Shown in pieces: positions 1,639-29,590 of a stretch of 32,000 nucleotides of DNA. The position numbers and the translations under genes were made by a program. The stretch covers positions 13,885 through 45,884 of the forward strand of contig JACPWU010000028.1 in the NCBI GenBank assembly GCA_016196885.1. The letters run 5' to 3'. The first letter of the stretch is position 1. The number at the start of each line of letters is the position of its first letter. Source of the DNA: Chlamydiota bacterium. Its GTDB lineage: Bacteria; Auribacterota; JACPWU01. The notes under the pieces are model-generated. The model did no database searches, had not been told where the DNA came from, and saw only the letters and a program-made list of their open reading frames with translations.

Positions 1639-1712
1639 AGTCGTGAGTCATGGGTCGTGAGTATTAAGGTTTTTATTTTTTACTCACGACTCAAGACCCA
1701 CAACCCACGACT
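1639..1712. repeat. heptamer-period hairpin element, GTCGTGA/ACTCACG word (pstB-phoU spacer)
   Basis: Left arm gtcgtga|gtcatgg|gtcgtga. Right arm actcacg|actcaag|acccaca|acccacg. AT loop ttaaggtttttattttt. Confidence 0.85.
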
Positions 1713-1716
1713 GTTT

Positions 1717-2469
1717 TTACCCGAATCTTCCCGAAATATAATCATTCGTTCGTTGATCTACCGGATTCGTAAAAATCTTGTCCGTCTGGCCAAATTCTAC
1801 AAGCTCCCCTAAGAGCATAAATCCAACATCATCTGAAATACGAGCTGCCTGCTGCATGTTGTGCGTTACAATGACAATGGTGTAACGTTCTTTCAATTGA
1901 AAACACAGTTCTTCGATCTTGGCTGTCGCAATAGGATCCAAAGCTGAGCAAGGCTCATCCATCAAAAGCACATCCGGTTCAATGGCCAGGAGCCTCGCAA
2001 TACAAAGCCTCTGCTGCTGCTCCCCTGAAAGAGACAGGGCCGAATGGTGCAACTTGTCTTTTAACACCTCCCACAATTCTACCGCACTTAAACACCGTTC
2101 TACCAGCCCTTCTAAGTCTTTTGATTTGGCCAAGCCATGAACCCGAGGGCCATAAGCTACATTTTCAAAAATAGAAATGGGGAAAGGATTGGGCCTCTGA
2201 AAAACCATGCCAATTCTTTTTCTCAACTCGGAAAGAAGAATGTCGCGACCAAAAATATTTTTCCCATCAATCAGAACTTCACCCTCTATGCGGACGCCGT
2301 CAATTAAATCATTCATTCGATTGAACACTCGAAGCAGAGTAGACTTCCCACAACCCGAAGGCCCAATCATAGATGTAATCCGGCACGCCTCAATGTTCAT
2401 AGAAACATCTTTCAAGGCGTGGAAAGAGCTGTAGTAAAGATTTAGATCCTGCACATGAATTTTGCTCAT
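1717..2469 (-). CDS. pstB: phosphate ABC transporter ATP-binding protein PstB (canonical Walker A, Q-loop and H-loop; signature LSGEQ)
   Basis: 250 aa with [47 protein letters not shown] and the typical PstB C-terminus YISGRFG. Confidence 0.95.
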
Positions 2470-2479
2470 CGTTTTTTAT

Positions 2480-2562
2480 CAGTCGTGAGTCGTCAGTCGT
2501 GGGTCGTGAGTTTTAAAGGTATTTTATTTTACTCACGACTCAAAACCCACGACTCACGACTG
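2480..2562. repeat. heptamer-period hairpin element, GTCGTGA/ACTCACG word (pstB'-pstB spacer)
   Basis: Left arm gtcgtga|gtcgtca|gtcgtgg|gtcgtga. Right arm actcacg|actcaaa|acccacg|actcacg. The loop tttaaaggtattttatttt is homologous to that of the 1639-1712 copy. Confidence 0.85.
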
Positions 2563-2565
2563 CCT

Positions 2566-3309
2566 TTAACCAAACCTCCCCGTAATGTATTCCCCTGTTC
2601 TATTGTCCCTTGGGTTAGTGAAAATCTTACTGGTTCCATCAACCTCCACCAATTCTCCCATTAAAAAGAAGGCAACCCGGTCACTCACGCGAGCCGCTTG
2701 TTTGGTATTATTTGTCACTAAAACCAATGTGTATTTTTCTTTCAGTTCAAGCATGGCCTCTTCCACCTTGGCTGTCGAAATAGGATCTAACCCAGAACAA
2801 GGCTCATCAAAAAGAATGACTTCCGGTTCTACCGCTAAAGTCCTTGCAATGCAAAGTCTTTGCTGTTGACCTCCCGACAATTTAAAAGCAGAACTGGAAA
2901 GACGATCTTTGACCTCCTCCCAAAGATAGGAGGCCTTGAGACTTTTTTCAACAATGTCTGCCAGTTCCTTTTTTTTGTGAATTCCATGCATACGCGGACC
3001 ATAAGCTACATTGTCAAAAATAGATAAAGGCAAAGGGAGAGGAAGCGCAAACACCATTCCAATTCTTTTTCTTAACAAAGAGACGTTGATTTTTTGAATA
3101 TCTTCCCCATCCATAAGAACCTGCCCTTCCATTCTCACGTGAAGTTCTAAATCGTTCAAACGATTCAATGTCCTTAGAAAGGATGTTTTCCCACTGTTTG
3201 CAGGTCCAATCGCTCCCAAAATCTCATTGCGGCGTATTTCCATGGAAATACCTTTTAAGGCATGAATAGAACCATAATAAACATGAAGATCTTCAACTTT
3301 AATTTTCAT
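2566..3309 (-). CDS. second PstB-like ATP-binding protein with degenerate Q-loop and H-loop
   Basis: 247 aa, a little over half identical to the neighbouring PstB by eye. Walker A is GPANSGKTS. The Q-loop position reads MVFALPLPLP (Q to A). The signature is canonical LSGGQQQRL. Walker B is ILFDEPCSGLD. The H-loop reads VTNNTKQA (H to N). Confidence 0.9.
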   Translation of the reverse strand: MKIKVEDLHVYYGSIHALKGISMEIRRNEILGAIGPANSGKTSFLRTLNRLNDLELHVRMEGQVLMDGEDIQKINVSLLRKRIGMVFALPLPLPLSIFDNVAYGPRMHGIHKKKELADIVEKSLKASYLWEEVKDRLSSSAFKLSGGQQQRLCIARTLAVEPEVILFDEPCSGLDPISTAKVEEAMLELKEKYTLVLVTNNTKQAARVSDRVAFFLMGELVEVDGTSKIFTNPRDNRTGEYITGRFG

Positions 3310-3312
3310 AAG

Positions 3313-3340
3313 CCTTTAAACTTTTAAACCTTTGAACTTT
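3313..3340. repeat. AAAC(C/T)TTT tandem word block (pstA-pstB' spacer)
   Basis: cctttaaacttttaaacctttgaacttt. The same words occur at 21438-21473 and 937-950. Confidence 0.7.
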
Positions 3341-3346
3341 CGCGAA

Positions 3347-4198
3347 TCACCACTGCTTTCTTCTTCTAAACCTCGCCCTGATAATCACCGCAAAAAGATT
3401 GAGAATCAGGACCATTCCGACCAACACCAAAGCTGTCCCATACTGAACTTCCGGTTTTACATTGGGAACTTGAGTTGAAAGCACATACAAATGGTAAGGA
3501 AGCACCATGACCTGATCAAAGAAAGAATGAGGCAGGCGCGGCAAATAAAAAGCTGCAACTGTAAAAAGAACTGGAGCCGTTTCTCCTGCCGCTCGAGAAA
3601 GGCCCAAAACAATTCCCGTCAAAATCCCTGGCAAGGCATTGGGCAACACCGCATGACGAATGGTTTGCCACCCTGTCGCACCCAAAGAGAGACTGACCTC
3701 TCGAAAAGAACGTGGCACCGTTGATAAAGCTTCTTTCGTAGATGTAATAATCACAGGAAGGGTCATGATTGCTAGGGTTAGAGCTCCAGCCAAAATTGAA
3801 GTTCCCATTTTTAGAAAAACCACAAAAAGTCCCAAACCAAAAAGGCCAAAGACAATCGAAGGAACACCCGCCAAATTTACAATCGCTACTTCCACAAAAC
3901 GTTTCAATGCATGGTCTCGAGCGTATTCCACCAGATAAACAGCCGCCAAAACGCCAAAGGGAATGGCAAAAAGCATGGTCACAGACACCAAATACAAGGT
4001 CCCCACAATGGCCGGGAAAATGCCCCCTGCCTTCATGCCCATTCTCGGCATCGCAGTCAAAAATTCCCAACTGATGCCGGGCCCCCCACGAATCACAATC
4101 AGAGCAATAATGACAAAAACAGGTGCGATCACCAAAACAGTGCACAAGGACAAAAGGGAAAAAGCAATTTTTTGAGTATGACGTGGAGAGATTATCAC
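3347..4198 (-). CDS. pstA: phosphate ABC transporter permease PstA
   Basis: 283 aa, polytopic, with an EAA-type loop (STKEALSTVPRSFREVSLSLGATGWQTI) followed by GETAPVLF. GTG start at 4196-4198, preceded by GAGGA. Confidence 0.9.
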   Translation of the reverse strand: MIISPRHTQKIAFSLLSLCTVLVIAPVFVIIALIVIRGGPGISWEFLTAMPRMGMKAGGIFPAIVGTLYLVSVTMLFAIPFGVLAAVYLVEYARDHALKRFVEVAIVNLAGVPSIVFGLFGLGLFVVFLKMGTSILAGALTLAIMTLPVIITSTKEALSTVPRSFREVSLSLGATGWQTIRHAVLPNALPGILTGIVLGLSRAAGETAPVLFTVAAFYLPRLPHSFFDQVMVLPYHLYVLSTQVPNVKPEVQYGTALVLVGMVLILNLFAVIIRARFRRRKQW

Positions 4199-4215
4199 AA
4201 TGTCCTCTGGTTAAC

Positions 4216-4289
4216 GTTCTTAGTTTTAAGTTTTTGGTTTTTGGTTTAAAAACTTTTTTCTGATCAACTCGAAACTCAAAACTAAGAAC
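4216..4289. repeat. heptamer-period hairpin element, NNNGGTT/AACTNNN word (pstC-pstA spacer)
   Basis: Left arm cttagtt|ttaagtt|tttggtt|tttggtt. Right arm aactcga|aactcaa|aactaag|aac. The outer 12 bp are perfect (gttcttagtttt/aaaactaagaac). Confidence 0.85.
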
Positions 4290-4293
4290 TGCA

Positions 4294-5223
4294 TTATTTC
4301 TTTCTATGCAATACAAAATCTGCAACTAAATTCACAAGAAATGTAATTAAAAATAAAACAATTCCAATCGCAAAAAGCGCAAAGTAATGAGAGCTACCCC
4401 GAACGGCCTCTCCCATTTCCGCGGCAATAGTCGCCGTCATGGTTCGAGCGGGATCAAAAAAACTTTTGGGTAAAATGGCCGCATTTCCTGTAATCATCAT
4501 TACGGCCATCGTTTCTCCAATGACGCGACCCATTCCAAGCATCACCCCCGCTAAAATTCCAGGAGCCGCCGCAGGAATTAAAACCCGATAAATGGTTTGC
4601 CACTGAGTTGCCCCTAAAGCAAAAGAACCTTCTCGATAGCTCTTAGGAACTGCATTAAAGGCATCTTCAATAATGCTTACAATCGTAGGCATCGCCATAA
4701 AAGCCAGCATCAAAGAACCTGAAAGGACCGTGAGTCCACTGCGTAAGTGAAAAAGATGTCTTACCAGAGGCACCAAAGTTACAAGCCCCACAAAACCAAG
4801 CACCACACTGGGAATCGCAGCCAAAAGTTCTACCCCTGCCTTAAAATAATCGCGCAAAGACCTTGGCACAATTTGGCCAATGAAAATAGCACATCCCAAA
4901 CCCAGGGGTACGGCAATCAAAACAGCTCCCAAGGTCACCCACAAAGATCCCATCAGAAGAGGAAGAACACCAAAGCGAGGAGGATCAGAAATGGGATACC
5001 AAAATTTTCCGATCAGAAAATCTTTGAGAGAAACGGTCTTAAAAAGAGACACGCCTTCTTTTAATAAAAATACAAAAATCAGAATGACAAAAAGGACAGA
5101 GGCTAAGCCACTGAGGAAAATTAGCTTTTCAATGATAAATTCAGAAATTTGTCTCTGTTGGATTTTCGTAATAGTCTCTCTTGTTTTAAAAATCCGAAGC
5201 ACGAATTTCGAAATCCGAAACAA
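4294..5223 (-). CDS. pstC: phosphate ABC transporter permease PstC (start codon uncertain)
   Basis: 309 aa with the permease loop IEDAFNAVPKSYREGSFALGATQWQTI followed by GETMAVMM. The only upstream starts are TTG (5221-5223) or GTG (5197-5199), and both lie inside the pstS-pstC hairpin element. Confidence 0.85.
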   Translation of the reverse strand: MFRISKFVLRIFKTRETITKIQQRQISEFIIEKLIFLSGLASVLFVILIFVFLLKEGVSLFKTVSLKDFLIGKFWYPISDPPRFGVLPLLMGSLWVTLGAVLIAVPLGLGCAIFIGQIVPRSLRDYFKAGVELLAAIPSVVLGFVGLVTLVPLVRHLFHLRSGLTVLSGSLMLAFMAMPTIVSIIEDAFNAVPKSYREGSFALGATQWQTIYRVLIPAAAPGILAGVMLGMGRVIGETMAVMMITGNAAILPKSFFDPARTMTATIAAEMGEAVRGSSHYFALFAIGIVLFLITFLVNLVADFVLHRKK

Positions 5224-5319
5224 ATCCGAAAACTCAAATTTAAAATTCTAACACTTTACACTTTCAACTGTTTAGATATTTGAATTTTAAATTTGTTTCG
5301 TACTTCGTGCTTCGAATTT
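5190..5319. repeat. heptamer-period nested hairpin element, CGAANNN word (pstS-pstC spacer, overlapping the pstC start)
   Basis: Helices at 5190-5205/5304-5319, 5216-5225/5291-5300 and 5236-5248/5282-5294. Arms are cgaagca|cgaattt|cgaaatc|cgaaaca and tttcgta|cttcgtg|cttcgaa|tttcgaa. Confidence 0.85.
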
Positions 5320-5324
5320 CGAAT

Positions 5325-6170
5325 TTATTTTTTCAACGGTACAAAATCCATTTGCTTCACAATTTCTTGACCTTGCGAGCTTTTTGCAAAATCAATAAAC
5401 ACCTTCACATTTCCCTGAGGAACGCCGCCCGTATACATGAGAAGAGGTCTTGAAATAGGATATTCTCCTTTGGAAGCGGTTTCAACCGAAGGCATGATAA
5501 AAGGTCCTTCTGGATTTTTAGAAACAGCGATTGCCTTTTCATCCTGGGTCAAATAACCCAAACCAAAATAGCCAATGGCCTCTGGATTATGCGAAACCTC
5601 TTCTGCAATCGTCTGAGAAGAAGGAAGCATCAAAATGGCAGGATCAAATTCTTCGGGGCCCTTTTCATTTCCACGTCTTACCACATGCTCTAAGAAAAAA
5701 ATATGCGTCCCTGAATTTCTCTCTCGGGAAAGCGCGACAATCTCACGATCCGGACCCCCCACTTCTTTCCAGTTCTTGATCTTCCCAGAAAAAATACCGG
5801 AAAGTTGATCAATATTAAGCTGACTCACGGGATTGTCCGGATGAACCACCACCGTCAAGGCATCAAGACCTACTACAAACTCCTTCACGTCATGCCCATT
5901 TTGCTTGGCCTGAGCAATCTCTTCAGGTTTCATGTTCCTAGAACTCTCTGCAATGTCACAGGTCCCATTGATCAAAGCCGCAATCCCAGTCCCCGAACCT
6001 CCCCCCGTCACTGCAATAGCCGAATCGGGATGAACCTCCATAAAGGCCTCTGCCCACGCCTGCCCCAGATTGACCATCGTATCCGATCCCTTCACCTGAA
6101 TCATTTTTTCACCGGCAAAAAGAGTTGTTCCACAAAAAAGCGATATAGCAAAAACCCAAAACTTTTTCAT
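5325..6170 (-). CDS. pstS: phosphate-binding protein PstS
   Basis: PBP-like motifs GSDTMVNLGQAWAEAF and VTGGGSGTGIAAL. I place the start at the second Met (ATG 6168-6170) because AAGGAGGA lies 4 nt upstream (6175-6182). From there the signal-peptide-like MKKFWVFAISLF begins. Confidence 0.9.
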   Translation of the reverse strand: MKKFWVFAISLFCGTTLFAGEKMIQVKGSDTMVNLGQAWAEAFMEVHPDSAIAVTGGGSGTGIAALINGTCDIAESSRNMKPEEIAQAKQNGHDVKEFVVGLDALTVVVHPDNPVSQLNIDQLSGIFSGKIKNWKEVGGPDREIVALSRERNSGTHIFFLEHVVRRGNEKGPEEFDPAILMLPSSQTIAEEVSHNPEAIGYFGLGYLTQDEKAIAVSKNPEGPFIMPSVETASKGEYPISRPLLMYTGGVPQGNVKVFIDFAKSSQGQEIVKQMDFVPLKK

Positions 6171-6200
6171 CCTATCCTCCTTTTTAAATTTCATTCACAA

Positions 6201-6229
6201 TACAGGAGTTTTGTGACAAGGGTGTGAAC
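6201..6229 (-). promoter_or_regulatory. Pho-box-like direct repeats (11-bp period) upstream of pstS, shared with the divergent CYTH gene
   Basis: The minus strand reads GTTCACA-ccct-TGTCACA-aaac-TCCTGTA. TGTCAC matches the E. coli Pho-box half-site CTGTCA(C/T). A TATTGT -10 candidate lies 9 nt downstream (6197-6202). Confidence 0.45.
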
Positions 6230-6243
6230 TTTTTGTTAAAGAA

Positions 6244-6909
6244 ATGTCAAATATGCTAGCATCATTACGGATGAAACAATCAAAAGAAATTGAATTTAAA
6301 TGGCAATGCGAGTCCCTTCAGGATTTTCAAAAATTCATAAAAGCGGCTCACACATGGGGTCATGATTTCAGCCAAACCAAAAAAGTTTCGATCCATGATT
6401 ATTACCTAGACACATCCCAACGATTCTTCGGCGAACGTCACGTCTCTTGCCGTCTTCGTAAACAAGACAAACGCTGGGAATTGACCTTGAAATCTAAATC
6501 AAAACTCAAGAGAGGACTGGCTGAAAGACTTGAAAAAACATGGCGTCTTGGGCACCTCCTCATTTTTTCTCAGGCGCTCAACCATTGTCAAAACCACATC
6601 CTTAAAGAAACGCTAAATTCTCAAAAACTTCAGGTGATTTTTGAAATCAGAAACAAGCGCCGCATGAAACAATTATGGATCACGCCTCACACCCAGGCCG
6701 CAATCTCTTTCGACAGCGTGAGCATCTCCAGAAAATCACGCTCCTTTCCCATGCTTGAGATTGAACTGGAATTCATTCGAGGGAATTCAGCTAGCTTTCT
6801 CTCTTTCATTCAAAAAATTTCTCGCCTCACAAAACTCAAAGCGGCCAAAACCTCTAAAGTTGAGAGGGCACTCAAAACATTTGGACTCAGGACGCGAAAG
6901 GGACCGTGA
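6244..6909 (+). CDS. CYTH-domain protein (triphosphate tunnel metalloenzyme family)
   Basis: N-terminal EIEFKW (ExExK), then CRLRK, LTLKSK and C-terminal LEIELEF, in the order typical of CYTH/TTM proteins. The true start may be an internal Met (MKQSKEIEFKW). Confidence 0.7.
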   Translation: MSNMLASLRMKQSKEIEFKWQCESLQDFQKFIKAAHTWGHDFSQTKKVSIHDYYLDTSQRFFGERHVSCRLRKQDKRWELTLKSKSKLKRGLAERLEKTWRLGHLLIFSQALNHCQNHILKETLNSQKLQVIFEIRNKRRMKQLWITPHTQAAISFDSVSISRKSRSFPMLEIELEFIRGNSASFLSFIQKISRLTKLKAAKTSKVERALKTFGLRTRKGP

Positions 6910-8098
6910 AACCAAAGGTGGATCCCCTCCCCCATTGAGATTGAACCCACACCTCACCCTTGTGGGCCTGAACAATGTGCTTCACAATGGAAAGCCCTAA
7001 TCCTGTTCCTCCCACATCGCCCAACTCGGGTCGGCCCAATCGAGGCGAGTTCACTTCTCGAGAGCGAGACTTATCTACGCGATAAAATCTTTCAAAAATC
7101 CTGGGCTGATCATCTGGAGGAATTCCAATCCCTGTATCCTTCACATTCACTTGGAGAAAATCTCCATCTTGAAAGGCACAAACCGTCACACGCCCTTTTT
7201 CAGGAGTGTATTTAATGGCATTGTCCAGGAGATTCACCATCACCTGAGAAAGCCGCACCTCATCTCCCAACACTTGAGGAATATCTTGAGCTAAATCTGA
7301 ATTCACAGAAAGAGTTTTTGCCCTCGCCGCTTGTTCCAAAATCGAAATTGCCTTTTGAATCACTCTCCTCATATCCACAGGGAGAAAAACCATTTTGACT
7401 TTTCCAGATTCCATTCGAGCCAAATCCAAAAGATCATCGACCAACTGGGACAAGCGATTGCTGTCACAGCTCACAATCTGTAGAAATTGACGAAGATCCG
7501 TCGGATTTTCCATGGCCCCATCCAGCAGCGTTTCAACATAACCCTTGATGCTGGAAAGGGGTGTGCGAAGCTCGTGAGAAACATTCGCAACAAAATCCTG
7601 TCGAACCTTTTCCAAGCGACGTAGTTCCGTAATATCATGAAAAACTAAAATGGCCCCCTCTACCTCATCTCGAATCACAACGGGCACCGCATTCACCTTA
7701 AAAAACTTTTCTTCAGGATGAGTTAACACTACCTCTTCAGTAATCAATCTATCTGTCAAACCCAGCGTTCTTTCCACAATATTTTGAATGGAAACATTTC
7801 GAATCATCTCCAAAGGGCTTTTTCCATAAGGATCCGTGTCCATCATGAATATTTTTTTGAAAGAAGGATTCGCAAAAAGAATGCGCCCCTTTGGGTCGGT
7901 AAGAAGGACTCCCTCAAACATGCTGGACAAAACAGCATCCAACTTGGCCTGTCCCATCCCCCCGGCCTCAGCCTTTTCTTTCAGATTGGACTGCGAACTC
8001 TTTAGAGAAGACTGCAAAGCTTGAATCAATCGGCGAGAACGATAGAGACGATAAAACAGAAAAAGCAGAAAAATTGTTAGTACGATTTGGAAGACCAT
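6887..8098 (-). CDS. phoR: phosphate regulon sensor histidine kinase PhoR
   Basis: TM segment, PAS-like region, H-box FVANVSHELRTPLSSI, N-box LLDNAIKYT, and G-boxes DTGIGIP and GGTGLGLSIVKHIV. ATG at 8096-8098 is preferred over the TTG at 8146, which lies inside the repeat element. Confidence 0.85.
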   Translation of the reverse strand: MVFQIVLTIFLLFLFYRLYRSRRLIQALQSSLKSSQSNLKEKAEAGGMGQAKLDAVLSSMFEGVLLTDPKGRILFANPSFKKIFMMDTDPYGKSPLEMIRNVSIQNIVERTLGLTDRLITEEVVLTHPEEKFFKVNAVPVVIRDEVEGAILVFHDITELRRLEKVRQDFVANVSHELRTPLSSIKGYVETLLDGAMENPTDLRQFLQIVSCDSNRLSQLVDDLLDLARMESGKVKMVFLPVDMRRVIQKAISILEQAARAKTLSVNSDLAQDIPQVLGDEVRLSQVMVNLLDNAIKYTPEKGRVTVCAFQDGDFLQVNVKDTGIGIPPDDQPRIFERFYRVDKSRSREVNSPRLGRPELGDVGGTGLGLSIVKHIVQAHKGEVWVQSQWGRGSTFGFTVPFAS

Positions 8099-8123
8099 AT
8101 TAAAATCCAGCCGTAAAAAAATA

Positions 8124-8239
8124 CAATGACAAATTCCCAATTTCAAATGTCAAATCAATGACCAATGACTCAATGTCCAATGGGTCATTGGTCCATTGGA
8201 AATTAATTTGTCATTGGGTATTGGTCATTTGAAATTGAA
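8124..8239. repeat. 7-8-nt-period hairpin element, CCAATGA/TCATTGG word (phoB-phoR spacer)
   Basis: The left half has tandem caatgac-like units and the right half tandem gtcattg/attggtc units. The centre is ccaatg-ggt-cattgg near 8184. Confidence 0.8.
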
Positions 8240-8283
8240 TAGAGGTATATTTCCATTTTATTCATCGAAACTTATAGTTATAA

Positions 8284-9597: not shown

Positions 9598-9628
9598 GCA
9601 CGAAACTAGAATTTCGAATTTGTTTTTA
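9598..9628. repeat. solo arm of the CGAA/TTCG word family
   Basis: agcacgaaactagaatttcgaatttgttttt shares agcacgaa and gaatttcgaattt / aatttgttt with the 5190-5319 element. No inverted partner nearby. Confidence 0.6.
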
Positions 9629-10369
9629 AAGTGGCATTGCACACATTCTTGTCAAATACCCCGCCATCAATTCACCCATAAAAACAGAGGCCGTGGTGAA
9701 ATAAAGAATGCCTGTCGTCGAGCGATTCGAATGAATTTTTGCGCATTGATAAGCAAAAATCAGAAAAAAAATGGGCAAAAGCCCTCCCCACAAAAATCGG
9801 CTCAAAAATAAAATATCCCCTGCCTGATAAAACAACTTTGTCCAACTCCCCTCACCTCTAAGAAAGAGCGCAAAACCGACTTCACCCATTCTCAAAACTG
9901 ACAAACCCAGAAAAACCAAACACCCGAGAACCAAATGTCGGAAGGAAAGTCGGGGCCGGATTAAATACCAATGTCCCAAAACCATGCTAAAAAGAGAAGC
10001 CCCGAGTAAGAGGGCACTCAAGAAGAGATTTAAGAAAGCCTGCATGGAAATTTCCCCCTCCTCTCCAAGTCCCAGCACTAAAACAACCACACCTACGGCA
10101 AAAACGGGCAAAACCCATAAATCTATTTTTTCTAATTCCAAGCGATTGATCGCCAAATACACCACCATGTCTAAAAAAATAAAAACCATCAATCCTATAT
10201 TGCCGATCAACCCCTGAAGAATCCCACCTAAAATACCAAAGGCAATGGATAAAAAAATCAGAAGACGAAAAAAGGTTTTTCCCGTATCCTGAAGAGGAAT
10301 CAAGGTCAACCAGGGAAGAATCCCGACAGACAATTTGATAAAGAATAAACTTAGGACGTGATTTAACAT
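9626..10369 (-). CDS. hypothetical polytopic membrane protein
   Basis: About 8 hydrophobic segments, with GHWYLIRP and a conserved-looking C-terminus. The start is placed at the internal Met (10367-10369) because the upstream part of the ORF is a 14-bp tandem repeat. Confidence 0.5.
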   Translation of the reverse strand: MLNHVLSLFFIKLSVGILPWLTLIPLQDTGKTFFRLLIFLSIAFGILGGILQGLIGNIGLMVFIFLDMVVYLAINRLELEKIDLWVLPVFAVGVVVLVLGLGEEGEISMQAFLNLFLSALLLGASLFSMVLGHWYLIRPRLSFRHLVLGCLVFLGLSVLRMGEVGFALFLRGEGSWTKLFYQAGDILFLSRFLWGGLLPIFFLIFAYQCAKIHSNRSTTGILYFTTASVFMGELMAGYLTRMCAMPL

Positions 10370-10374
10370 ACAAT

Positions 10375-10402
10375 GAAGAGTGTAAAGTGAAGAGTGTAAA
10401 GT
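10375..10402. repeat. perfect 14-bp x2 tandem (gaagagtgtaaagt), i.e. four 7-mers
   Basis: Occupies 10375-10388 and 10389-10402 and fills the short divergent gap before the ygfZ-like ATG. Related to cactttacactttc at 5252-5265 (reverse complement). Confidence 0.85.
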
Positions 10403-10406: not shown

Positions 10407-11333
10407 ATGGAAAAATTATCTTCTATCGAAAAAGAATGGAAAGCCGTCAGAACACAAGTGGGTTTTTTAGACTTATCTCATCAAGGGAAAATTCTTGTTG
10501 AAGGAAAAGATCGTGCGAGTTTTCTTCATAACATGTTTTCAAATGATATCAAATCTCTCACTCCTGGCATCCATCGCTACACCACGCTCCTGACACCCAA
10601 AGGAAAAATCATTTCGGACATTGACGTCTATGCTTTTGAAAATTATTTTATACTGGAACTTTATCCAGAAAACGTGAAAAAGGTTGTTGATCGGCTCAAC
10701 TCTTTTATCATCACAGAGGATGTAATGCTTAAAGACGTCAGCCCTCTTTTCGGCCACCTCTCTTTTCAGGGACCTCTTTCAAATGAGAAAATTCTTTCTG
10801 GAAACTTTCAAGCCTTTGATCACGAACGCTGTGGAGAGAAGGGTTATGACTTTATCATTCCCATGAAAAATTTAGAGACACAAAAGATCCAGTCCATTGG
10901 TCTCACAACCTACAATATCTTGCGGATCGAGGCTGGTATTCCCTGGTACGGATCTGAATTAGATGAAACCATTATTCCCAACGAGGCCAATCTGGAAAAT
11001 GCCATCAGTTGGACAAAAGGCTGCTACCCCGGCCAAGAAATTGTCGCCCGCGTTAAATATTTAGGTGGGGTTCAGAAAAAACTCACAGGAATTGTGATGG
11101 AAGGAAATGTAATTCCTCAAAAAGGTGACAGAATTTTAAAAGACGAAAAAGAAATAGGAATCATCACCAGTGCTGTCTATTCCTTTCAACTTTCTTGCCC
11201 CATCGCCCTGGCCTATTTAAAAACAGCATCAGCAACTCCTGATGAAAAAATTCAAATTCATCACGAAGATAAAATTTTAAACGGTAAAGTACAGTCCCTC
11301 CCTTTTTATAAAAGACAGGAGACCTCTTCATGA
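10407..11333 (+). CDS. ygfZ: YgfZ/GcvT-like folate-binding protein
   Basis: Aminomethyltransferase-like N-terminus (VGFLDLSHQGKILVEGKD) and the YgfZ signature KGCYPGQEIVAR. Confidence 0.75.
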   Translation: MEKLSSIEKEWKAVRTQVGFLDLSHQGKILVEGKDRASFLHNMFSNDIKSLTPGIHRYTTLLTPKGKIISDIDVYAFENYFILELYPENVKKVVDRLNSFIITEDVMLKDVSPLFGHLSFQGPLSNEKILSGNFQAFDHERCGEKGYDFIIPMKNLETQKIQSIGLTTYNILRIEAGIPWYGSELDETIIPNEANLENAISWTKGCYPGQEIVARVKYLGGVQKKLTGIVMEGNVIPQKGDRILKDEKEIGIITSAVYSFQLSCPIALAYLKTASATPDEKIQIHHEDKILNGKVQSLPFYKRQETSS

Positions 11334-14370: not shown

Positions 14371-14574
14371 GTATTTAAAAGTATGTCCTTTATTCATGCG
14401 GGTGACGCCCAACGGGGTTCCCATCAAGCGCCGGAAGAAAGAGTCACTCGCATCGGCTATACATCTGGCACCCTTATCGAGACCGACCCCACAGGGGCTA
14501 TAACCTCTGTGCCGTTGATGGGGTTGTTGGGCGACAGGACCCGCCACCTTTCCAAAGGACACACTTTTAAATAC
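14371..14574. ncRNA. candidate structured ncRNA, rod-like with an internal three-way region (6S-like architecture); strand unresolved
   Basis: GC-rich island in AT-rich DNA. Nested helices: 14371-14391/14554-14574 (21 bp, one A.C on plus that is G.U on minus), 14398-14403/14539-14544, 14406-14413/14526-14533 and 14420-14427/14515-14522. Internal hairpins: 14443-14450/14478-14487 and 14490-14497/14504-14511. The long ORFs on both strands here look non-protein-like. Confidence 0.5.
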
Positions 14575-15450: not shown

Positions 15451-15455
15451 GAAGG

Positions 15456-15547
15456 CAGAAGTCAAAAAACAGAATTCAGGAGTCAGAATCCAAAATTCAG
15501 AATAAATAATGAACCTTATTATTCTGAATTCTGGATTCTGAATTCTG
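15456..15547. repeat. heptamer-period hairpin element, CAGAATN word (nuoK-nuoL spacer)
   Basis: Left arm cagaagt|caaaaaa|cagaatt|caggagt|cagaatc|caaaatt|cagaata. Right arm attctga|attctgg|attctga|attctg. 15477-15505 pairs with 15519-15547 (29 positions, 2 mismatches, 1 G.U). Confidence 0.9.
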
Positions 15548-15570
15548 TTTTCAAGGAGCGTAGCGACGTT

Positions 15571-21430: not shown

Positions 21431-21437
21431 TCAATAT

Positions 21438-21473
21438 CCTTTGAACTTTTAAACCCTTAAACTTTTGAACCTT
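21438..21473. repeat. AAAC(C/T)TTT tandem word block (leuC-leuD junction, overlapping the leuC 3' end)
   Basis: cctttgaacttttaaacccttaaacttttgaacctt. Homologous to 3313-3340. Confidence 0.7.
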
Positions 21474-22888: not shown

Positions 22889-22953
22889 AGTGCTTAAGTG
22901 TCTAGGTGTCTGAGTGCTTAAGTTAGTAGGAAGGATTTTTTTACTTAGGCACT
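22889..22953. repeat. octamer-period repeat block with short inverted partner (leuC upstream region)
   Basis: gtgcttaa|gtgtctag|gtgtctga|gtgcttaa|gt, then acttaggcact at 22943-22953, followed by a T-run on the plus strand. Confidence 0.75.
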
Positions 22954-23405: not shown

Positions 23406-23423
23406 AAATACCTCCTGATGGAG

Positions 23424-24070: not shown

Positions 24071-24078
24071 AATAAAAC

Positions 24079-24116
24079 CTCATATGATATATTATATATA
24101 CAAGATATCATATGAG
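24079..24116 (-). promoter_or_regulatory. perfect 12-bp inverted repeat (CTCATATGATAT / ATATCATATGAG), candidate terminator and TA operator
   Basis: Arms at 24079-24090 and 24105-24116 with a 14-nt AT loop. It lies 10 nt after the M20 peptidase stop and 8 nt before the antitoxin ATG. On the minus strand it is followed by GTTTTATTATG, and the GAGG RBS overlaps the 3' arm. Confidence 0.5.
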
Positions 24117-24126
24117 CCGTCTTTTG

Positions 24127-25500
24127 TCAAACCTTCCATTTGGCCAAATCTCCATAGAAATATGCCATTCCCTCAATCCCTTTAAAAAAATTCACAAGAT
24201 CCAAACGCTCATTAGGAGCATGCGCATTCTCATCTGGAAGGCCAAAGCCCAAAAGCACACAAGGCTTTTTCAAAATATCCGAAATCGTCCTCACAAAGGG
24301 AATGGAACCCCCCTCGCGAATAAAATGGGCCTTCTTCCCAAAGGCCTTCTCCAAGGCCCTTTTCGCAACTTCAAAAATGGGATGATTCAAGCGCTCCAAG
24401 AAGGCCCTGGAACCATGATGTTTGATGACTTTCACGTTCACCGTCAAAGGAGAAATCTTTTCGACATGCTTTTTAAAAGCGGATGCAATTTTGTCAGGAT
24501 CTTGATCCGGAACGAGTCGCATGCTCACTTTGGCGCCCACCTTTGCCGGAATAATGGTTTTAGAGCCCTCTCCCGAAAACCCTCCAAAAATGCCGTTTAC
24601 ATCAAGTGTCGGGCGAGCCCACATTCTTTCCAAAGTAGAAAAACCTTTTTCACCTGTGAATTTTAGAGAACCTGTTACTTTAAGAAGTTTTTTCTCAGAA
24701 GCAGGCAGCCTAGCCAACATCCTTCGCTCCGTTTTTGACAAGGGATAAACATCTTTATAAAATCCAGGGATCAAAATCCTTCCGTTCTTGTCTTTGAGCT
24801 TTGAAAGAATCCCGGCCAAGACATGAACAGGATTTTCAACCGTCCCACCCCACATGCCAGAATGAAGATCCTGAGAAGAGCCCGATACATGAATTTCCAT
24901 ATAACATAATCCCCTCAAACCATAACAAATCGAAGGAACCTCACGGTCTAGCATGGGAGTATCAGAAATAATCACCTCATCCGCCTTGAGGAGATTTTTT
25001 TGCTCTTTGAGAAAATTTTTTAAACTGGGACTTCCTATTTCCTCTTCGCCTTCGATCAAAACTTTTACATTCAAAGGCAGTCTTCCCCAAGTCCTAAAAT
25101 AAGCCTCGAGCGCTGACAAATGAATATACACCTGCCCTTTATCATCCACTGAGCCTCGAGCATATAACCGCCCACCCCGAATATCCGGTTCAAAGGGAGG
25201 TTTCACCCATTCATTGAGTGGATCTACGGGCTGAACATCATAATGACCATACACCAGAACTGTGGGGTGTCCTGGAGCCTCTAGCCACTCTGCATAAACA
25301 ATGGGATGACGCTTCGTTGGAAAAATTTCTACTCGTTTCATTCCCATTTCTTTTAATCTTTGAGCCAAAAAATCCGCACAACGAGCCACATCAGAAACAT
25401 GGGAAGGACTGACACTGATACTCGGGATGCGAAGACATTCATTTAAATTGTTTAGAAAATCATTCTGATGTTTTTGGATGTAAGATAAAACTTGCTGCAT
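24127..25500 (-). CDS. M20-family dipeptidase/metallohydrolase
   Basis: 457 aa with YGHYDVQP, ARGSVDDKGQ, EGEEEIGS and the C-terminal DENAHAPNE. Confidence 0.85.
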   Translation of the reverse strand: MQQVLSYIQKHQNDFLNNLNECLRIPSISVSPSHVSDVARCADFLAQRLKEMGMKRVEIFPTKRHPIVYAEWLEAPGHPTVLVYGHYDVQPVDPLNEWVKPPFEPDIRGGRLYARGSVDDKGQVYIHLSALEAYFRTWGRLPLNVKVLIEGEEEIGSPSLKNFLKEQKNLLKADEVIISDTPMLDREVPSICYGLRGLCYMEIHVSGSSQDLHSGMWGGTVENPVHVLAGILSKLKDKNGRILIPGFYKDVYPLSKTERRMLARLPASEKKLLKVTGSLKFTGEKGFSTLERMWARPTLDVNGIFGGFSGEGSKTIIPAKVGAKVSMRLVPDQDPDKIASAFKKHVEKISPLTVNVKVIKHHGSRAFLERLNHPIFEVAKRALEKAFGKKAHFIREGGSIPFVRTISDILKKPCVLLGFGLPDENAHAPNERLDLVNFFKGIEGMAYFYGDLAKWKV

Positions 25501-25568
25501 AACATCTCCTGATATTGCAGTTTGCTACATTAAGATGACACGAGAATTAATATGTTTGCATTAATCCC

Positions 25569-26216
25569 TTAAGACCAATTGCCACTCCAACCATCTCCCA
25601 TCGCCTTCAAAAAGAGAGGGAGGGATTCACATTTGAAATAGGGATTTCCCTTTTTCTGCTCCCCCAAAGTAGCCGTCGGTGTATCGGCATAATTATGGCC
25701 AGGATATAAAATGATTTCGTTATCCAATTGACGCAACTTACTTAAACTTCGGAACATCTCTTCCGTGCTCCCTCCCGGCAAATCACAACGGCCGCAATAA
25801 TTGATAAAAAGCGTGTCTCCGGACACCAAGGAGTCCTCGACCCTAAAACATTGCGATCCGGGTGTATGTCCAGGCGTATGAAGAAAGCGAATCGTCACAG
25901 TGCCGATTTGCAGGGTATCTTCTCCATGTACCTTTTTCAGATTAGGCTCAAATTTCTTCAGGGCAAAGGCATCGTGCTCATTTACATAGACAGGGACATC
26001 ACTCTTTTTTAGAAGACCCTCAATCCCATTCACATGATCGAAATGATAATGGGTAGCGAGAATCCCTTTTAATTTCAAATCCTTTTCTTCAAGCGCCTCT
26101 TGAATTCTCTCAGGCTCCCACCCCGGATCCACCACCACCGCCTCGCGCGTCTGGGGACATCCGACAAGATAAACAAAATTCTGCATGGGACCCAATTCAA
26201 GTTGATGAAGAATCAT
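25569..26216 (-). CDS. MBL-fold metallo-hydrolase (glyoxalase II-like)
   Basis: THYHFDHVNG, HTPGHTPGS and YPGH. Start placed at the internal Met (26214-26216) because the longer ORF overlaps the upstream gene, which ends at 26222. Confidence 0.85.
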   Translation of the reverse strand: MILHQLELGPMQNFVYLVGCPQTREAVVVDPGWEPERIQEALEEKDLKLKGILATHYHFDHVNGIEGLLKKSDVPVYVNEHDAFALKKFEPNLKKVHGEDTLQIGTVTIRFLHTPGHTPGSQCFRVEDSLVSGDTLFINYCGRCDLPGGSTEEMFRSLSKLRQLDNEIILYPGHNYADTPTATLGEQKKGNPYFKCESLPLFLKAMGDGWSGNWS

Positions 26217-26221
26217 AGAAT

Positions 26222-26797
26222 TTATTCCTGAAAAATCTTCTGAACAACATGCAATTTTTGATGAAACTCTTTCCCCGATAACACTGGAGCTCCTTCGGTC
26301 GAAAAATTCTCGCCCAAGTTGACCCAGGATTTGCAACCCTCATATTCACTGCGATGAGGAACTAAAATTTCCTCAGGTAACCGGAATATTCGCAGGCAAA
26401 GGACATAAAGCCCTTTCTCTCTCCCCCAAGAGAAGCGCTCCTCCACAACGGACCTAGACCAGACATGCTGGCCCTCCAAGAGATAAAGCTTCTCTAATTC
26501 CTTCGCCTGATAAACCGCTTGAACCGAGGCATAAAATTGAAGATGGATATTGCCATCTTGGGGACGACTCTGGAGAAGGGCGTCCAATCTGGCATGAACA
26601 GACGGGATCAATTCTTCTTGATTCTGATGCTCATACGTAGGAAAAAGAAAAAATTCTCTTTCCTCGACTTCGAAGCCGCCAGTCCCTTCATGAATTCCAC
26701 CTTTGCGGAGGATCAAAATCTGATCACCCCCACCCAAGGCATCCACGACCACAGCCCATTCTTTAAAGGCTTTTGAATTTCTTTGAAGAACTTTCAT
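26222..26797 (-). CDS. DUF1802-family protein
   Basis: 191 aa. The N-terminus AFKEWAVVVDALGGGDQILILRKGGIHE matches my recollection of DUF1802 proteins. No function known. Confidence 0.55.
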   Translation of the reverse strand: MKVLQRNSKAFKEWAVVVDALGGGDQILILRKGGIHEGTGGFEVEEREFFLFPTYEHQNQEELIPSVHARLDALLQSRPQDGNIHLQFYASVQAVYQAKELEKLYLLEGQHVWSRSVVEERFSWGREKGLYVLCLRIFRLPEEILVPHRSEYEGCKSWVNLGENFSTEGAPVLSGKEFHQKLHVVQKIFQE

Positions 26798-26912
26798 CTC
26801 TCCTCTATTTTTCCCCTGACAAAGACCTACCTTTTATCATAATATATTGATCACTCAGGAAGGCTGATGATATCAAAGAAGTAAAAACGAGACAAAGGAA
26901 AAGGGTCACTTT

Positions 26913-28652
26913 ATGCGCCGCAAGTCTTTTTATATTTTTCTCTCACTTTTATTGACTGGATTTACGAATTTAGCCAAGTCTGAAGCCCTTTCTCAAACCC
27001 ACATTCAATCCTTTGAGGGAGAAGTCGAGGTTATGGGCCCAAAAGACACGTCTGGAAAACCCGCCCAGATGCAAAGGGTGCTTTCAGCCTCCGACACCAT
27101 CACCACAGGGGACCATGCCTATTGCGTGGTTCAAATAGACGCGGACAACCTTTTTCGAATCAAACAAAATTCCAATGTCAAAATCGAAAAAATATGGGAG
27201 GAGGTTCAGAAACCTGATGGATCCGTGGTCCAAGAGTACCGTGTTCATTTGGCCAAGGGAGAATTGACCGCAAAATTAAATGCCATCCCCCATCAAAGCC
27301 AATTCGATGTGACGAGCCCCGTCGCCATCGCTGGAGCAACGGGCACCGTCTACAATGTTAAAGTGGATCCTGAGACCTTGAGGACGGTGGTCAGCGTCCT
27401 CAACCACGAAGTTTTTGTCGAAAGCCAAAATGAACCCCAAAAGACCACGGTCTTAAAAACATTTCAGCAAGTGGAAGTAGCTCCTTGGCGAAATGCAATC
27501 TTAGAAGTGCTCGGTTGGGGAGATCCCGCGGAAACGCTTCTAGAGCCCCAAGATAAACCTGAAGAAATTGAAATCTACTCCCTTGGCCAAGGCGTCTCGA
27601 AGGAAGAAGCCAAGACCCAAGCCCTTGAAAAACTAACGCGGCTCATCCTCCACTTGCGAATGAAAAATTCGAAAACCCTGCAGGATTGGCTAAACCAGAA
27701 CCCGGACCTCACTCCAAAAATCTACACCTTAATCAATCAAGCTGAAATCATTCGGACAACCCCCCTCGTTTCCAAAGGAGAAAATTCCAAAATCAGAACC
27801 CTCTTCCAGGTGGAGATTCGTCTTCCCCTCACCTCTCTCTTAGAAATCATCCCCGAACCCCTTCAAGGCGTCAGAAGAAGCATCTTTCCTCTTTCCCAGG
27901 AAGAATATTTTTCAAAATTTGGAAGACCGTTTCAAAAAACAATTTTAGAAAAGGCATGGAAAGAAAGCCCCGCCTCCTTTCTAAAAACCTTAGAACAAAT
28001 GACGCTCTCATCCGGAAAAACATTCAAAGACACACTGGCACAAAACGAAAAAATCAAAGCCGCAGTTCAAAAATTGGTTCGCAATACTTCCATCGATGAG
28101 ATTGAATATTTTTCAGATGGATCTCTCATGATTTCTCTCAAGATCCCAGGAAAAGAAATCGTTCAATCCCTCACTTCCATCACAGGAAATATTTACGGTG
28201 AAAATTATTTTTCAGCCCCTCAGGCCCTGAACTTCGAAAATTTTAAAAACAGTCTGGAAATAAAATCCCTCGCTCTAGAAAACGGAAAACCGAAAATACT
28301 TCATGCTCAGAGCGCCCCCTTTAACGCCTCTGGTGAAGGAGGAGATTCAGAAAACAATTTGTCCTCTGTTGAAAACTCCATCACCCCCGTGGATCAAAAC
28401 CTTTACAAAGAACAATTCCAGCCGGCAAGAACACAAACCCATCCTTTGGGCACGGACTTCATCACACAGCCCAAAGAACCCAGTGGAATCGTGGAATCCA
28501 ATGGGGGAGAAAATCAGTCTATCGAACAACCCAGCGCTCCGACCCACACGCAGCCCAGCCCTTCGCCCAATCTACCTGACCGAGAAAGAGAGAGGGAGAG
28601 ACCGAATCTCCCAGTCCCAGAGCAAAATTCGCGAGACCGCCAAAATCGTTGA
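26913..28652 (+). CDS. secreted FecR-domain protein with a low-complexity C-terminal tail
   Basis: Signal peptide MRRKSFYIFLSLLLTGF. FecR-like beta region (FEGEVEVMGP...ITTGDHAYCVVQID...VHLAKGELTAKL). Two alpha/beta repeats of unknown family, then a Pro/Ser/Gln-rich tail ending DRERERERPNLP. Confidence 0.6.
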   Translation: MRRKSFYIFLSLLLTGFTNLAKSEALSQTHIQSFEGEVEVMGPKDTSGKPAQMQRVLSASDTITTGDHAYCVVQIDADNLFRIKQNSNVKIEKIWEEVQKPDGSVVQEYRVHLAKGELTAKLNAIPHQSQFDVTSPVAIAGATGTVYNVKVDPETLRTVVSVLNHEVFVESQNEPQKTTVLKTFQQVEVAPWRNAILEVLGWGDPAETLLEPQDKPEEIEIYSLGQGVSKEEAKTQALEKLTRLILHLRMKNSKTLQDWLNQNPDLTPKIYTLINQAEIIRTTPLVSKGENSKIRTLFQVEIRLPLTSLLEIIPEPLQGVRRSIFPLSQEEYFSKFGRPFQKTILEKAWKESPASFLKTLEQMTLSSGKTFKDTLAQNEKIKAAVQKLVRNTSIDEIEYFSDGSLMISLKIPGKEIVQSLTSITGNIYGENYFSAPQALNFENFKNSLEIKSLALENGKPKILHAQSAPFNASGEGGDSENNLSSVENSITPVDQNLYKEQFQPARTQTHPLGTDFITQPKEPSGIVESNGGENQSIEQPSAPTHTQPSPSPNLPDRERERERPNLPVPEQNSRDRQNR

Positions 28653-28708
28653 AGTTGCAACTTCCAACATTGTTAGAGTGGAAATTTTTATTTTGGCTTT
28701 ACACACCA

Positions 28709-28738
28709 TTGACGGCATTCCTTCGTTTATGCTAATTT
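28709..28738 (+). promoter_or_regulatory. sigma70-like promoter for the sdh operon
   Basis: TTGACG (28709-28714), an 18-nt spacer, then TAATTT (28733-28738), 28 nt upstream of the ATG at 28766. Confidence 0.4.
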
Positions 28739-28765
28739 GAAGGCCATTTTTGCAAATGGAATTTC

Positions 28766-29497
28766 ATGAACATTTCACAATCACAGAACAACACTTCCGT
28801 TTTAACTTTCAGAACCGACTTTTGGTGGCTTGCACCCCTGTCTTCTGTTTTAGCCATTGTAGCTTTTGTTATTTATTCCACCTGGGCCGCTTTTCAGGGT
28901 GGACATTTTGAATACCAAAATTATCACTCCCCCTTTTCTTGGCCCATCCATCCCAAGTGGTGGCCTTTTTCACCTGCCTTTTTAACCATTTGGGCTCCTC
29001 TGGGATTTAGAGCCACATGCTACTATGTGCGACGAGTTTATTATCGCTCTTTCTTTAGAGATCCGATCGCTTGCGCCGTTCGAGAATCTCGTAAGAGCTA
29101 CAGCGGAGAAACCGATGTCCCTTTCATTTTTCAAAATCTTCATCGTTTTTTTCTCTACACCACCTTGATAGAACTGGCTGTTTTGTGGCTCGATGCCATT
29201 CATGGTTTTATATTTTCCGGAAGATTCGGATTTGGAATAGGATCTTTGGTCCTATTGATGAATTCAACGCTCCTTTCGCTCTACACCTTTTCCTGTCATG
29301 CCTTTCGACACCTGGTGGGCGGCAATTTGGACTGTTTCTCTCAATGTCCCAAACGCTCTTTTTTATGGAAAAAGATCAGTATTTTGAATGAAAGACACGG
29401 GCTTTACATGTGGATTAGTTTAGGATGGGTAGGGTTTTCGGATCTTTATGTCAGAATGTTGTCTATGGGGATCTGGAAGGACATTAGGTTCTTTTAA
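28766..29497 (+). CDS. putative single membrane-anchor subunit of succinate dehydrogenase/fumarate reductase (SdhC-like)
   Basis: 243 aa, about 5 hydrophobic segments, several conserved-looking His and a CH-x3-H-x7-C-x3-C cluster. The assignment rests mainly on its position directly upstream of sdhA and sdhB in C-A-B order. Confidence 0.5.
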   Translation: MNISQSQNNTSVLTFRTDFWWLAPLSSVLAIVAFVIYSTWAAFQGGHFEYQNYHSPFSWPIHPKWWPFSPAFLTIWAPLGFRATCYYVRRVYYRSFFRDPIACAVRESRKSYSGETDVPFIFQNLHRFFLYTTLIELAVLWLDAIHGFIFSGRFGFGIGSLVLLMNSTLLSLYTFSCHAFRHLVGGNLDCFSQCPKRSFLWKKISILNERHGLYMWISLGWVGFSDLYVRMLSMGIWKDIRFF

Positions 29498-29504
29498 AAA
29501 AGAG

Positions 29505-29590
29505 GACAGAAGTCAGAATCCAGAATCCAGAATAAAAAACTAAAAATCGCTGCTTTTTGATTTTATTCTGAATTCTGAATTCTAGATTCT
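29505..29590. repeat. heptamer-period hairpin element, CAGAATN word (sdhC-like - sdhA spacer)
   Basis: Left arm cagaagt|cagaatc|cagaatc|cagaata. Right arm attctga|attctga|attctag|attctaa. It shares the gcagaagtca...cagaataaa head with the 15456-15547 copy. Confidence 0.9.

Follow-up and report, generated by a model that had tools for sequence, protein, structure and literature searches.

What occupies the spacers of a genome in which period and architecture stay constant from one spacer to the next and the repeated word does not? This question is raised by a 32,000-nt stretch of a metagenome-assembled genome (MAG) labelled Chlamydiota bacterium (assembly GCA_016196885.1, contig JACPWU010000028.1, positions 13,885 to 45,884; hereafter the window), in which an initial annotation had described twelve intergenic spacers as runs of tandem heptamers, most of them folded into long hairpins. 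Our analysis shows that both the 7-nt period and the hairpin architecture are genuine and exceed chance expectation by a wide margin, that the class of element is already described, and that the host lineage is what is new. We consider it rather probable that these are non-coding, dispersed palindromic elements of 70–140 nt similar to the short tandemly repeated repetitive sequences (STRR) of cyanobacteria, most of which would be passengers that form intercistronic stem-loops once transcribed, and a minority of which would have been recruited. At least one copy, between pstB and phoU, looks constrained.

The periodicity was quantified by a lag-identity test, in which 20 short spacers were pooled (1763 nt) and compared with dinucleotide-preserving shuffles. 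Identity at lag 7 amounted to 0.410 in the pooled spacers against 0.273 ± 0.011 in the shuffled sequences (z = 12.0), and harmonics appeared at twice and three times this distance (lag 14, z = 8.4; lag 21, z = 4.7), while the coding DNA of the window had a lag-7 identity of 0.252 and no period-7 signal. When spacers were taken singly, lag-7 z values of 4.8–7.2 were obtained at 1623–1716, 2470–2565, 4199–4293, 5190–5324, 8121–8283, 15451–15570 and 29498–29665. Tandem Repeats Finder (TRF) placed period-7 arrays at 1682, 2481, 2531, 4230, 5311, 8156, 10374, 15521, 29514 and 29565; all of its period-7 rows except a minor one lie in spacers, and the arrays are degenerate, with 75–90% matches. Inverted arms of 18–36 nt, 75–94% complementary, were found at exactly the seven spacers with strong lag-7 z values (1640/1681, 2480/2531, 4216/4272, 5190/5291, 8138/8220 with an inner pair at 8160/8178, 15472/15519 and 29508/29561), and the RNA folds of these seven hairpins range from −21 to −48 kcal/mol (z −3.2 to −9.6). 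The constant period and architecture reported at first are thus borne out. The loops are AT-rich and 13–65 nt long, and several pairing registers of the arms are about equally good, as had been anticipated for arms made of tandem repeats.

At least nine distinct loci and at least six distinct words were counted within the 32 kb (Table 1), in agreement with the earlier remark that the repeated word differs between loci. Among the twelve spacers listed originally, seven robust heptamer hairpins and one or two direct heptamer arrays stood up to this analysis, while three are period-8 octamer arrays, one weak. The layout relative to genes is regular: six of the seven hairpins have an array or stem that begins 3–10 nt past the upstream stop codon (46 nt at the exception, phoB-phoR), and the elements end 5–25 nt ahead of the downstream start codon. 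The Shine-Dalgarno (SD) sequence is usually left free, as with AGGAG before phoU, GAGGA before pstA and AAGGAG before nuoL; no such site is visible between the 29505–29590 element and the sdhA ATG. All seven robust hairpins of the window lie between co-directional genes, which confirms the placement at intra-operon junctions proposed before. The names given to these junctions were upheld by NCBIfam for pst, phoB-phoR, nuoK-nuoL and leuC-leuD, and only the supposed sdhC (28766–29497) had no family match.

Table 1. Periodic spacer elements of the window. Folds are in kcal/mol.
Element	Positions	Strand	Location	Periodicity	Arms and fold
GTCGTGA/TCACGAC hairpin	1639–1712	−	pstB1-phoU spacer; starts 4 nt past pstB1 stop, ends 16 nt before phoU ATG, AGGAG free		sense −38.8, z −7.7
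GTCGTGA-family hairpin	2480–2562	−	pstB2-pstB1 spacer; starts 3 nt past stop, ends 10 nt before ATG		32-nt arms, 84% complementary; −48.0, z −9.6
Direct array AAACYTTT	3313–3340	−	pstA-pstB2 spacer	TRF period 8/16; best lag 8 (0.66)	no inverted arm
GTTTTNG/CNAAAAC hairpin	4216–4289	−	pstC-pstA spacer; 4 nt past stop	lag-7 z = 4.8	18-nt arms, 94% complementary; −21.0, z −4.2
Nested hairpin, CGAAAYY-type arms (largest element)	5189–5326	−	pstS-pstC spacer; abuts pstS stop	lag-7 z = 7.2	sense −46.5, z −6.8
CCAATGA/TCATTGG hairpin	8124–8239	−	phoB-phoR spacer	lag-7 z = 5.0	sense −39.2, antisense −43.0
Short CGAA-type periodic stretch, weak; doubtful member of the heptamer class	9598–9628	−		lag-7 0.42, z = 1.8; no TRF row	
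Perfect 14-nt unit x2.1 (TGAAGAGTGTAAAG; two related heptamers, TGAAGAG + TGTAAAG); may instead be an operator, outside the hairpin class	10374–10402		divergent promoter region between 9626–10372 (−) and ygfZ/gcvT-like gene at 10407 (+)	TRF period 14, 100% matches; lag-7 0.59, z = 2.8	no inverted arm
CAGAATY/RATTCTG hairpin	15456–15552	+	nuoK-nuoL spacer; 5 nt past stop, followed by conserved AAGGAGCGTAGCGACGTT leader and ATG	lag-7 z = 6.8	34-nt arms, 85% complementary; −38.7, z −6.6
Direct array, AAACYTTT family	21431–21473	−	leuC 3′ end and leuC-leuD spacer	period 8; best lag 8	
Array (GTGCTTAA-like), weak member	22889–22953	−	upstream of leuC	period 8; best lag 8 (0.41)	12-bp stem; fold not significant on either strand (z −1.3 to −1.6)
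CAGAATY-family hairpin	29505–29590	+	between ORF 28766–29497 and sdhA; ends 5 nt before sdhA ATG 29596	lag-7 z = 5.9	sense −24.2, antisense −32.8

Comparison with related genomes showed that the elements are lineage-specific additions at junctions that are 0–8 nt long in relatives, with starts 0–10 nt past the upstream stop codon. A sister MAG (GCA_016178055.1, loci L010 and L619) has a LeuC 88% identical to that of the window, and the next relatives have LeuC proteins 85% and 83% identical; the synteny of M20, leuCD and nuoNMLKJ is retained across all of them. The sister genome is the richer: 21 kb of it hold about 11 hairpins, and lag-7 z is 15.5 and 7.0 at its two loci. The next relatives are nearly element-free, with lag-7 z of 2.0–2.9 and spacers of 0–8 nt; GCA_964640155.1 is an element-poor relative. 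Expressed as period-7 TRF arrays per 10 kb, the densities are 3.8 in the window, 10.8 in L010 and 0.5 in L011. At nuoK-nuoL, the empty state is TAA-CGAAT-ATG, a 5-nt spacer in L011 and L012. In both the window and the sister this junction holds an element, and a common leader, AAGGAGCrTAGCGAC(g)TT-ATG, comes after it; the words are CAGAATY in the window and AAAATCA in the sister. The pst and pho junctions vary likewise: the sister has a 2-nt spacer at pstB2-pstB1 and another word, GACGACA x9 in a direct array, at phoB-phoR; the pstS-pstC spacer is 5–8 nt in the sister and the next relative; and the orthologous pstA-pstB2 junction of L619 carries a word related to AAACYTTT (GTTCAAAGTTTAAAGG). 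Only two of 23 window spacers have BLAST similarity to the sister genome, and these are the two GTCGTGA hairpins. Thus the clade offers an unusually clean comparative series, two element-saturated genomes beside close relatives with the same operons nearly free of elements, in which growth in place versus copying, passenger versus recruited copies, and the DNA versus the RNA level become addressable.

Elements were also found to reach into coding sequence. At leuC-leuD, three genomes have three different arrays, each beginning at or over the stop codon; comparison of the window junction with L010, L011 and L013 showed that the window array replaces the ancestral leuC stop codon and adds five residues to LeuC. 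The longest open reading frames (ORFs) of pstC and phoR (TTG 5223 and TTG 8146) extend into hairpins, and automatic start calls for the two genes are therefore suspect. The consequence for annotation is that starts are called inside elements at pstC and phoR and that the stop is displaced at leuC. In the sister genome, a uvrA-like ORF holds two in-frame copies of a GCTCGAR family (L619 16210–16300 and 18345–18532), with folds of −61 and −101 kcal/mol. The ORF stays open for more than 1762 codons and translates the elements as low-complexity segments, and the orthologue in an element-poor relative (L620) is without them. These in-frame copies speak for DNA that was inserted or copied, and against regulators built for the purpose. 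A CTCACAA x4.3 array likewise lies within the 5′ coding end of the sister pstC (L619 9044–9073, MKSSQLTTHNSRL...), which shows that an N-terminal tail can take up an array.

The elements fall into families, and within a family the copies have their arms, their loop and the succession of variant units in common. The two GTCGTGA hairpins of the window are 86% identical over about 95 nt, loop included, and the pstB paralogues that they flank are 60% identical in protein; the hairpins are therefore either younger than the pstB duplication or homogenised. CAGAATY arms are common to 15456–15552, 29505–29590 and a non-orthologous site in the sister genome (L010 20985–21110). Within L010, seven elements align as one family of about 140 nt, in which variant-unit order and loop are the same and all seven copies are co-oriented. 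The earlier statement that this is not a single dispersed family holds insofar as there are multiple words, but not where the GTCGTGA pair and the seven-copy L010 family are concerned. One copy of the L010 family carries a nested 30-nt GC-rich mini-palindrome, and small GC-rich palindromes were seen nested in heptamer hairpins in the arm at L010 17140–17175 and in the loops at L024 11520–11650 and 12040–12120 (a Chloroflexi contig described below). Small dispersed repeats are known inside cyanobacterial heptamer arrays, and the nested palindromes recall them.

The pstB-phoU hairpin is conserved. Its spacer is identical at 79 of 94 positions (84%) between the window and the sister (L619 12410–12503), with junctions and loop alike, and four-fold sites in the flanking pstA, pstB and phoU are 30–35% identical, that is, saturated. 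Such conservation points to real constraint at an ambiguous level, since the non-orthologous GTCGTGA copy of the window matches that of the sister equally well (85.5% over 76 nt) and the family consensus may be what is constrained. One-sided changes in the stem give a G-U pair on the sense strand in four of four cases (p about 0.06), a hint of RNA-level selection at this site.

To account for these observations, we propose that arrays may arise by replication slippage favouring 7-nt units, that strand-switch or fold-back copying might turn them into palindromes, and that the palindromic elements would spread by copying along an unspecified route; elements of such origin would mainly be tolerated passenger DNA. 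Those within operons would be co-transcribed and would be expected to fold into stems of 25–36 bp, and the most plausible effect of the stems would be to serve as processing sites for double-strand-specific RNases or to block 3′ exonucleases, which could leave the flanking cistrons with different mRNA stabilities. A minority of copies, such as that at pstB-phoU, would probably have been recruited to a stability role. Parallels are the REP (repetitive extragenic palindromic) sequences in E. coli operons, the RNase III sites that separate early genes of phage T7, and the role proposed for the STRR sequence between hupS and hupL.

Several results weigh against this proposal of copied, mostly passenger palindromes. 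The genomic material covers only about 32 kb of the host and, for the sister, about 42 kb. Strand tests covered 17 elements of the window and the sister genome, 12 of them oriented. Of these 12, 6 fold better as the sense strand, which is not significant and agrees with the original observation that the mRNA-sense strand is not consistently favoured; for the G-rich strand, presumed to be the leading one, the count is 11 of 17, again without significance. The 29505–29590 element indeed pairs better as the antisense strand, as had been pointed out (Table 1). Alignments of family copies contain no compensatory pairs, a result that is uninformative because they are nearly invariant. The 84% conservation at pstB-phoU could reflect constraint on the family consensus rather than benefit to the host. 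NCBIfam and Pfam scans found no transposase, REP-associated tyrosine transposase (RAYT) or other mobilising gene in the window. Comparison of filled with empty junctions defined no target-site duplication. Finally, some arrays look seeded from local sequence, such as the ATGAAAC array of L013, which takes in the leuC stop codon; this fits growth in place rather than insertion.

Of the other explanations, an assembly or chimera artefact of the MAG has practically negligible probability. MAG contigs can mis-join at repeats, and sdhA has an apparent frameshift, but across the elements the window is matched at 100% identity by two Logan assemblies made independently from separate runs, one (L009) over 13,193 bp and the other (L014, SRR12113416) over 2098 bp including both GTCGTGA hairpins, and the architecture recurs in the sister MAG, at an orthologous site among others. 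It is also unlikely, in our estimate, that each spacer simply grew its own array by slippage from local sequence, followed by neutral decay and with neither mobility nor function. Such growth in place is favoured by the abundance of heptanucleotide repeats, for which slippage has been proposed (PMC4679880, PMC4692102), by arrays that start at a stop codon or overlap it and can incorporate it, as in L013, by the different words at the orthologous nuoK-nuoL and leuC-leuD junctions and by the degeneracy of the arrays. However, it does not predict that copies at different loci share loop and variant-unit order, that the GTCGTGA copies are far more alike than the gene duplicates they follow, that conserved-loop elements occur twice in frame in one gene and are absent from its orthologue, or that pstB-phoU is conserved where four-fold sites are saturated.

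An origin as evolved regulatory RNAs, selected site by site for RNase III/E processing, partial termination or 3′-end protection and setting the PstS/PstCAB/PhoU ratio, appears just as improbable as growth in place. The co-directional setting of all seven robust hairpins speaks for it, as do the order of stop codon, hairpin, SD and start codon in the window, L010 and the Chloroflexi contig L024, the position of the largest element after pstS, and the conserved pstB-phoU hairpin with its one-sided G-U changes. Yet the same operons of relatives work with spacers of 0–8 nt; four of ten sister elements lie in convergent or divergent spacers and others inside an ORF; and compensatory changes, a consistent sense-strand preference and terminator matches are all missing. 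In a terminator scan, no heptamer hairpin was called on its sense strand, and since no element fits, termination is disfavoured; loops of 13–65 nt and A runs downstream on the sense strands differ from intrinsic terminators. An Rfam scan of the window gave no family at gathering score. Still less probable are protein-binding arrays, in which a 5-nt core would be read every 7 nt on DNA or RNA and the hairpin would be secondary. Mismatches in the arrays fall in two adjacent positions at a frequency of 0.741 against a null of 0.655 ± 0.027 (42 arrays), which points to units in which a pentamer is conserved and two positions are free (a 5+2 grammar) but is only suggestive, because mirrored arms and overlapping TRF rows are counted twice; binding has also been proposed for the TAACTGA repeats (PMC4679880) and the Nostoc heptamers (Nostoc preprint). 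On the other hand, at least six unrelated words in 32 kb are too many for one protein, pentamer cores at period 6, 7 or 8 are common in public data, and no candidate protein is encoded nearby. Two further sources of the repeats were also considered. Pho boxes, which repeat every 11 bp, were ruled out as the source of the pst arrays, as these repeat every 7 or 8 bp; and GANTC or other methylation sites were set aside, some words containing GAGTC or GATTC and most not.

The initial annotation had not recognised a described class of element, and this does not hold. Knowledge of heptanucleotide repeats in bacteria goes back to 1990, and Mazel et al. (1990) reportedly described the cyanobacterial STRR sequences. 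The STRR sequences of filamentous cyanobacteria are usually 7-bp repeats that can form a hairpin, and one lies between hupS and hupL in several species, where transcript stability or translational coupling has been proposed (PMC2670836). Among the long simple repeats of many bacterial genomes, those with heptanucleotide units are the most abundant (PMC4679880, PMC4692102), and polymerase slippage favouring 7-nt units was proposed by Mrazek (2007), according to the summary in PMC4679880. The Xanthomonas word GGGAATC and the Nostoc word GGGGAYT are intergenic and sometimes form inverted pairs (PMC4692102), TAACTGA repeats lie just upstream of start codons in Beggiatoaceae (PMC4679880), and the heptamers GACCAAT and TTTTGAA are listed for Nostoc (Nostoc preprint). 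A full-text literature search for the GTCGTGA array matched only a primer, and the literature searched contained no paper joining heptamer repeats to bacteria of the Planctomycetes-Verrucomicrobia-Chlamydiae (PVC) superphylum.

With STRR sequences the window elements share the tandem, degenerate 7-nt unit, several words per genome, an intergenic and often intra-operon position, and the capacity to form hairpins as at hupS-hupL. The window word CCAATGA/TCATTGG (8124–8239) is the same circular word as GACCAAT of Nostoc, and TTTTGAW of the sister resembles TTTTGAA; the other window words have no match, and shared words are weak evidence. Unlike STRR sequences, the elements reside in a PVC MAG, with a nuo operon of the nuoJKLMN type, rather than in a cyanobacterium of the filamentous or heterocystous kind; an inverted partner accompanies nearly every array, and the copies are demonstrably families with common loops, the comparison being with published descriptions of STRR sequences. 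The heptanucleotide members of the long simple sequence repeats (defined by units of 5–11 nt, PMC4679880) are alike in the preferred 7-nt period, the intergenic position, arrays longer than chance, length and sequence that vary between close relatives at one junction, some inverted pairs, and the location of many just upstream of start codons. They differ in that one dominant word in mostly direct arrays is found there and many words with hairpins as the rule here; moreover, the G-quadruplexes proposed for their G-rich words are impossible for the window words.

Other known repeats resemble the elements less closely. REP sequences and bacterial interspersed mosaic elements (BIMEs) are also short dispersed palindromes in co-directional spacers with family conservation across species, REP sequences are known as intra-operon mRNA stabilisers or decay barriers, and the seven co-oriented copies of the L010 family fit this picture. 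However, REP sequences are 20–40 nt long, GC-rich, headed by GTAG, without a 7-nt period and mobilised by RAYT, whereas the elements have arms of 18–36 nt made of heptad arrays, AT-rich loops and no GTAG head. Within the window only the sdhA-sdhB spacer (31392–31480) fits REP: its three GC-rich palindromic units of about 22 nt with GTAG/CTAC heads (GTAGTCGCCCCATTTATGGGGC, GCCCGATGAATCGGGCGACTAC and GCCCCATAAATGGGCGACTAC) fold at −54.7 kcal/mol (z −7.8), and it looks like a REP/BIME-type cluster distinct from the heptamer elements. Regarding miniature inverted-repeat transposable elements, the arms are inverted, filled and empty junctions allowed no target-site duplication to be defined, and no insertion sequence was seen in the window. 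As for phase variation, the arrays are not perfect (75–90% matches) and are identical in assemblies from two runs (two samples). Rickettsia palindromic elements (RPE) are said to insert in frame into genes and leave the ORF intact (Ogata et al. 2000), and the sister GCTCGAR family is likewise in frame in its uvrA-like gene; but the sequences are unrelated, RPE have no heptamer periodicity, and no in-frame copy occurs in the window, where the C-terminal extension of LeuC by a period-8 array comes nearest. RNase III processing hairpins between cistrons are known from the phage T7 early region and rpsO-pnp, and the elements share with them long, near-perfect stems (25–36 bp) between cistrons of one transcript; those, however, are conserved individual structures, and the window elements are repeat families.

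Similar arrays were also encountered outside the clade. A 20-nt pattern of the GTCGTGA family matched nine metagenome contigs with GC contents of 0.39–0.72, several of them with hairpins of the GTCGTGA word and one of them a Chloroflexi (Anaerolineae) MAG. A Chloroflexi relative (L024, a 1.7-Mb contig) has heptamer hairpins in its suf operon, some with nested GC-rich palindromes in the loops, and the layout is that of the window: stop codon, array, loop, inverted array and AAGGAG. The pst neighbourhood of a Sedimentisphaerales MAG (L001) contains direct arrays of CTCGTGA, ACGGAGG, AATATCC and GATTTCN at 3509–3578 and 5508–5596, consecutive, at gene ends and without inverted partner, which indicates that heptamer arrays also occur in another PVC phylum. 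This MAG came from a PstA search of genome contigs, as the best match at 63%, with no close relative among the matches. The recurrence of words such as GAGTCGT in unrelated contigs gives no ground for claiming a shared vocabulary, because control scans also gave many matches: in scans of viral contigs, TGAGTNN x4 and CAGAANN x4 each gave at least 120 matches, period-6 and period-8 controls likewise gave at least 120, and a permuted core (GATGT) gave 116. Two matches of the metagenome scan were dismissed, one in L017 (Ga0075108_10070357), where (TTTAGGG)n next to ACTCAAA arrays is probably an irrelevant eukaryotic subtelomere, and one in L019, probably a chance match in coding DNA. A bolder interpretation would join all of these into one non-autonomous class that spans phyla (PVC/Omnitrophota-like bacteria, Chloroflexi and cyanobacteria), with the 5+2 grammar, a dedicated machinery that acts on hairpins and writes or moves the elements, in-frame entry into genes and repeated recruitment as operon punctuation, for example at pstB-phoU; we regard it as quite unlikely.

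The gene content of the window was assigned by NCBIfam and Pfam scans. The minus strand encodes phoU, two pstB paralogues, pstA, pstC, pstS, phoR (PnpS-type) and phoB as well as leuD and leuC, and nuoJKLMN are on the plus strand; two PIN/antitoxin pairs, an M20 dipeptidase, sdhA and the start of sdhB were also identified. On the NCBI record, the LeuC and PstA of the window appear as "MAG: Chlamydiae bacterium", and outside a small clade their closest homologues are in Omnitrophica and Verrucomicrobia MAGs, on the basis of which the host is an uncultured bacterium of the PVC superphylum and not a cyanobacterium. The pstB paralogues stand in tandem (1717–3309), an arrangement also present in the relatives L619 and L620, and since they are only 60% identical in protein, the duplication is old. 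The sdhA gene starts at ATG 29596 (MTYESHEHDVIIIGAGGAG...) in a frame that stops near 29780, and a long ORF (29666–31357) follows in another frame; there is thus an apparent frameshift at 29596–29790, due either to an assembly error or to a real event. In the small-ORF region upstream of nuoJ, 34 nt (14535–14568) are 94% identical to L011 20859–20892, a relative that is otherwise saturated. Upstream of an antitoxin/PIN pair, a perfect-centred, AT-rich palindrome (24079–24116, CTCATATGATATATTATAT / ATACAAGATATCATATGAG) is overlapped by promoter-like hexamers and is probably an autoregulation operator.

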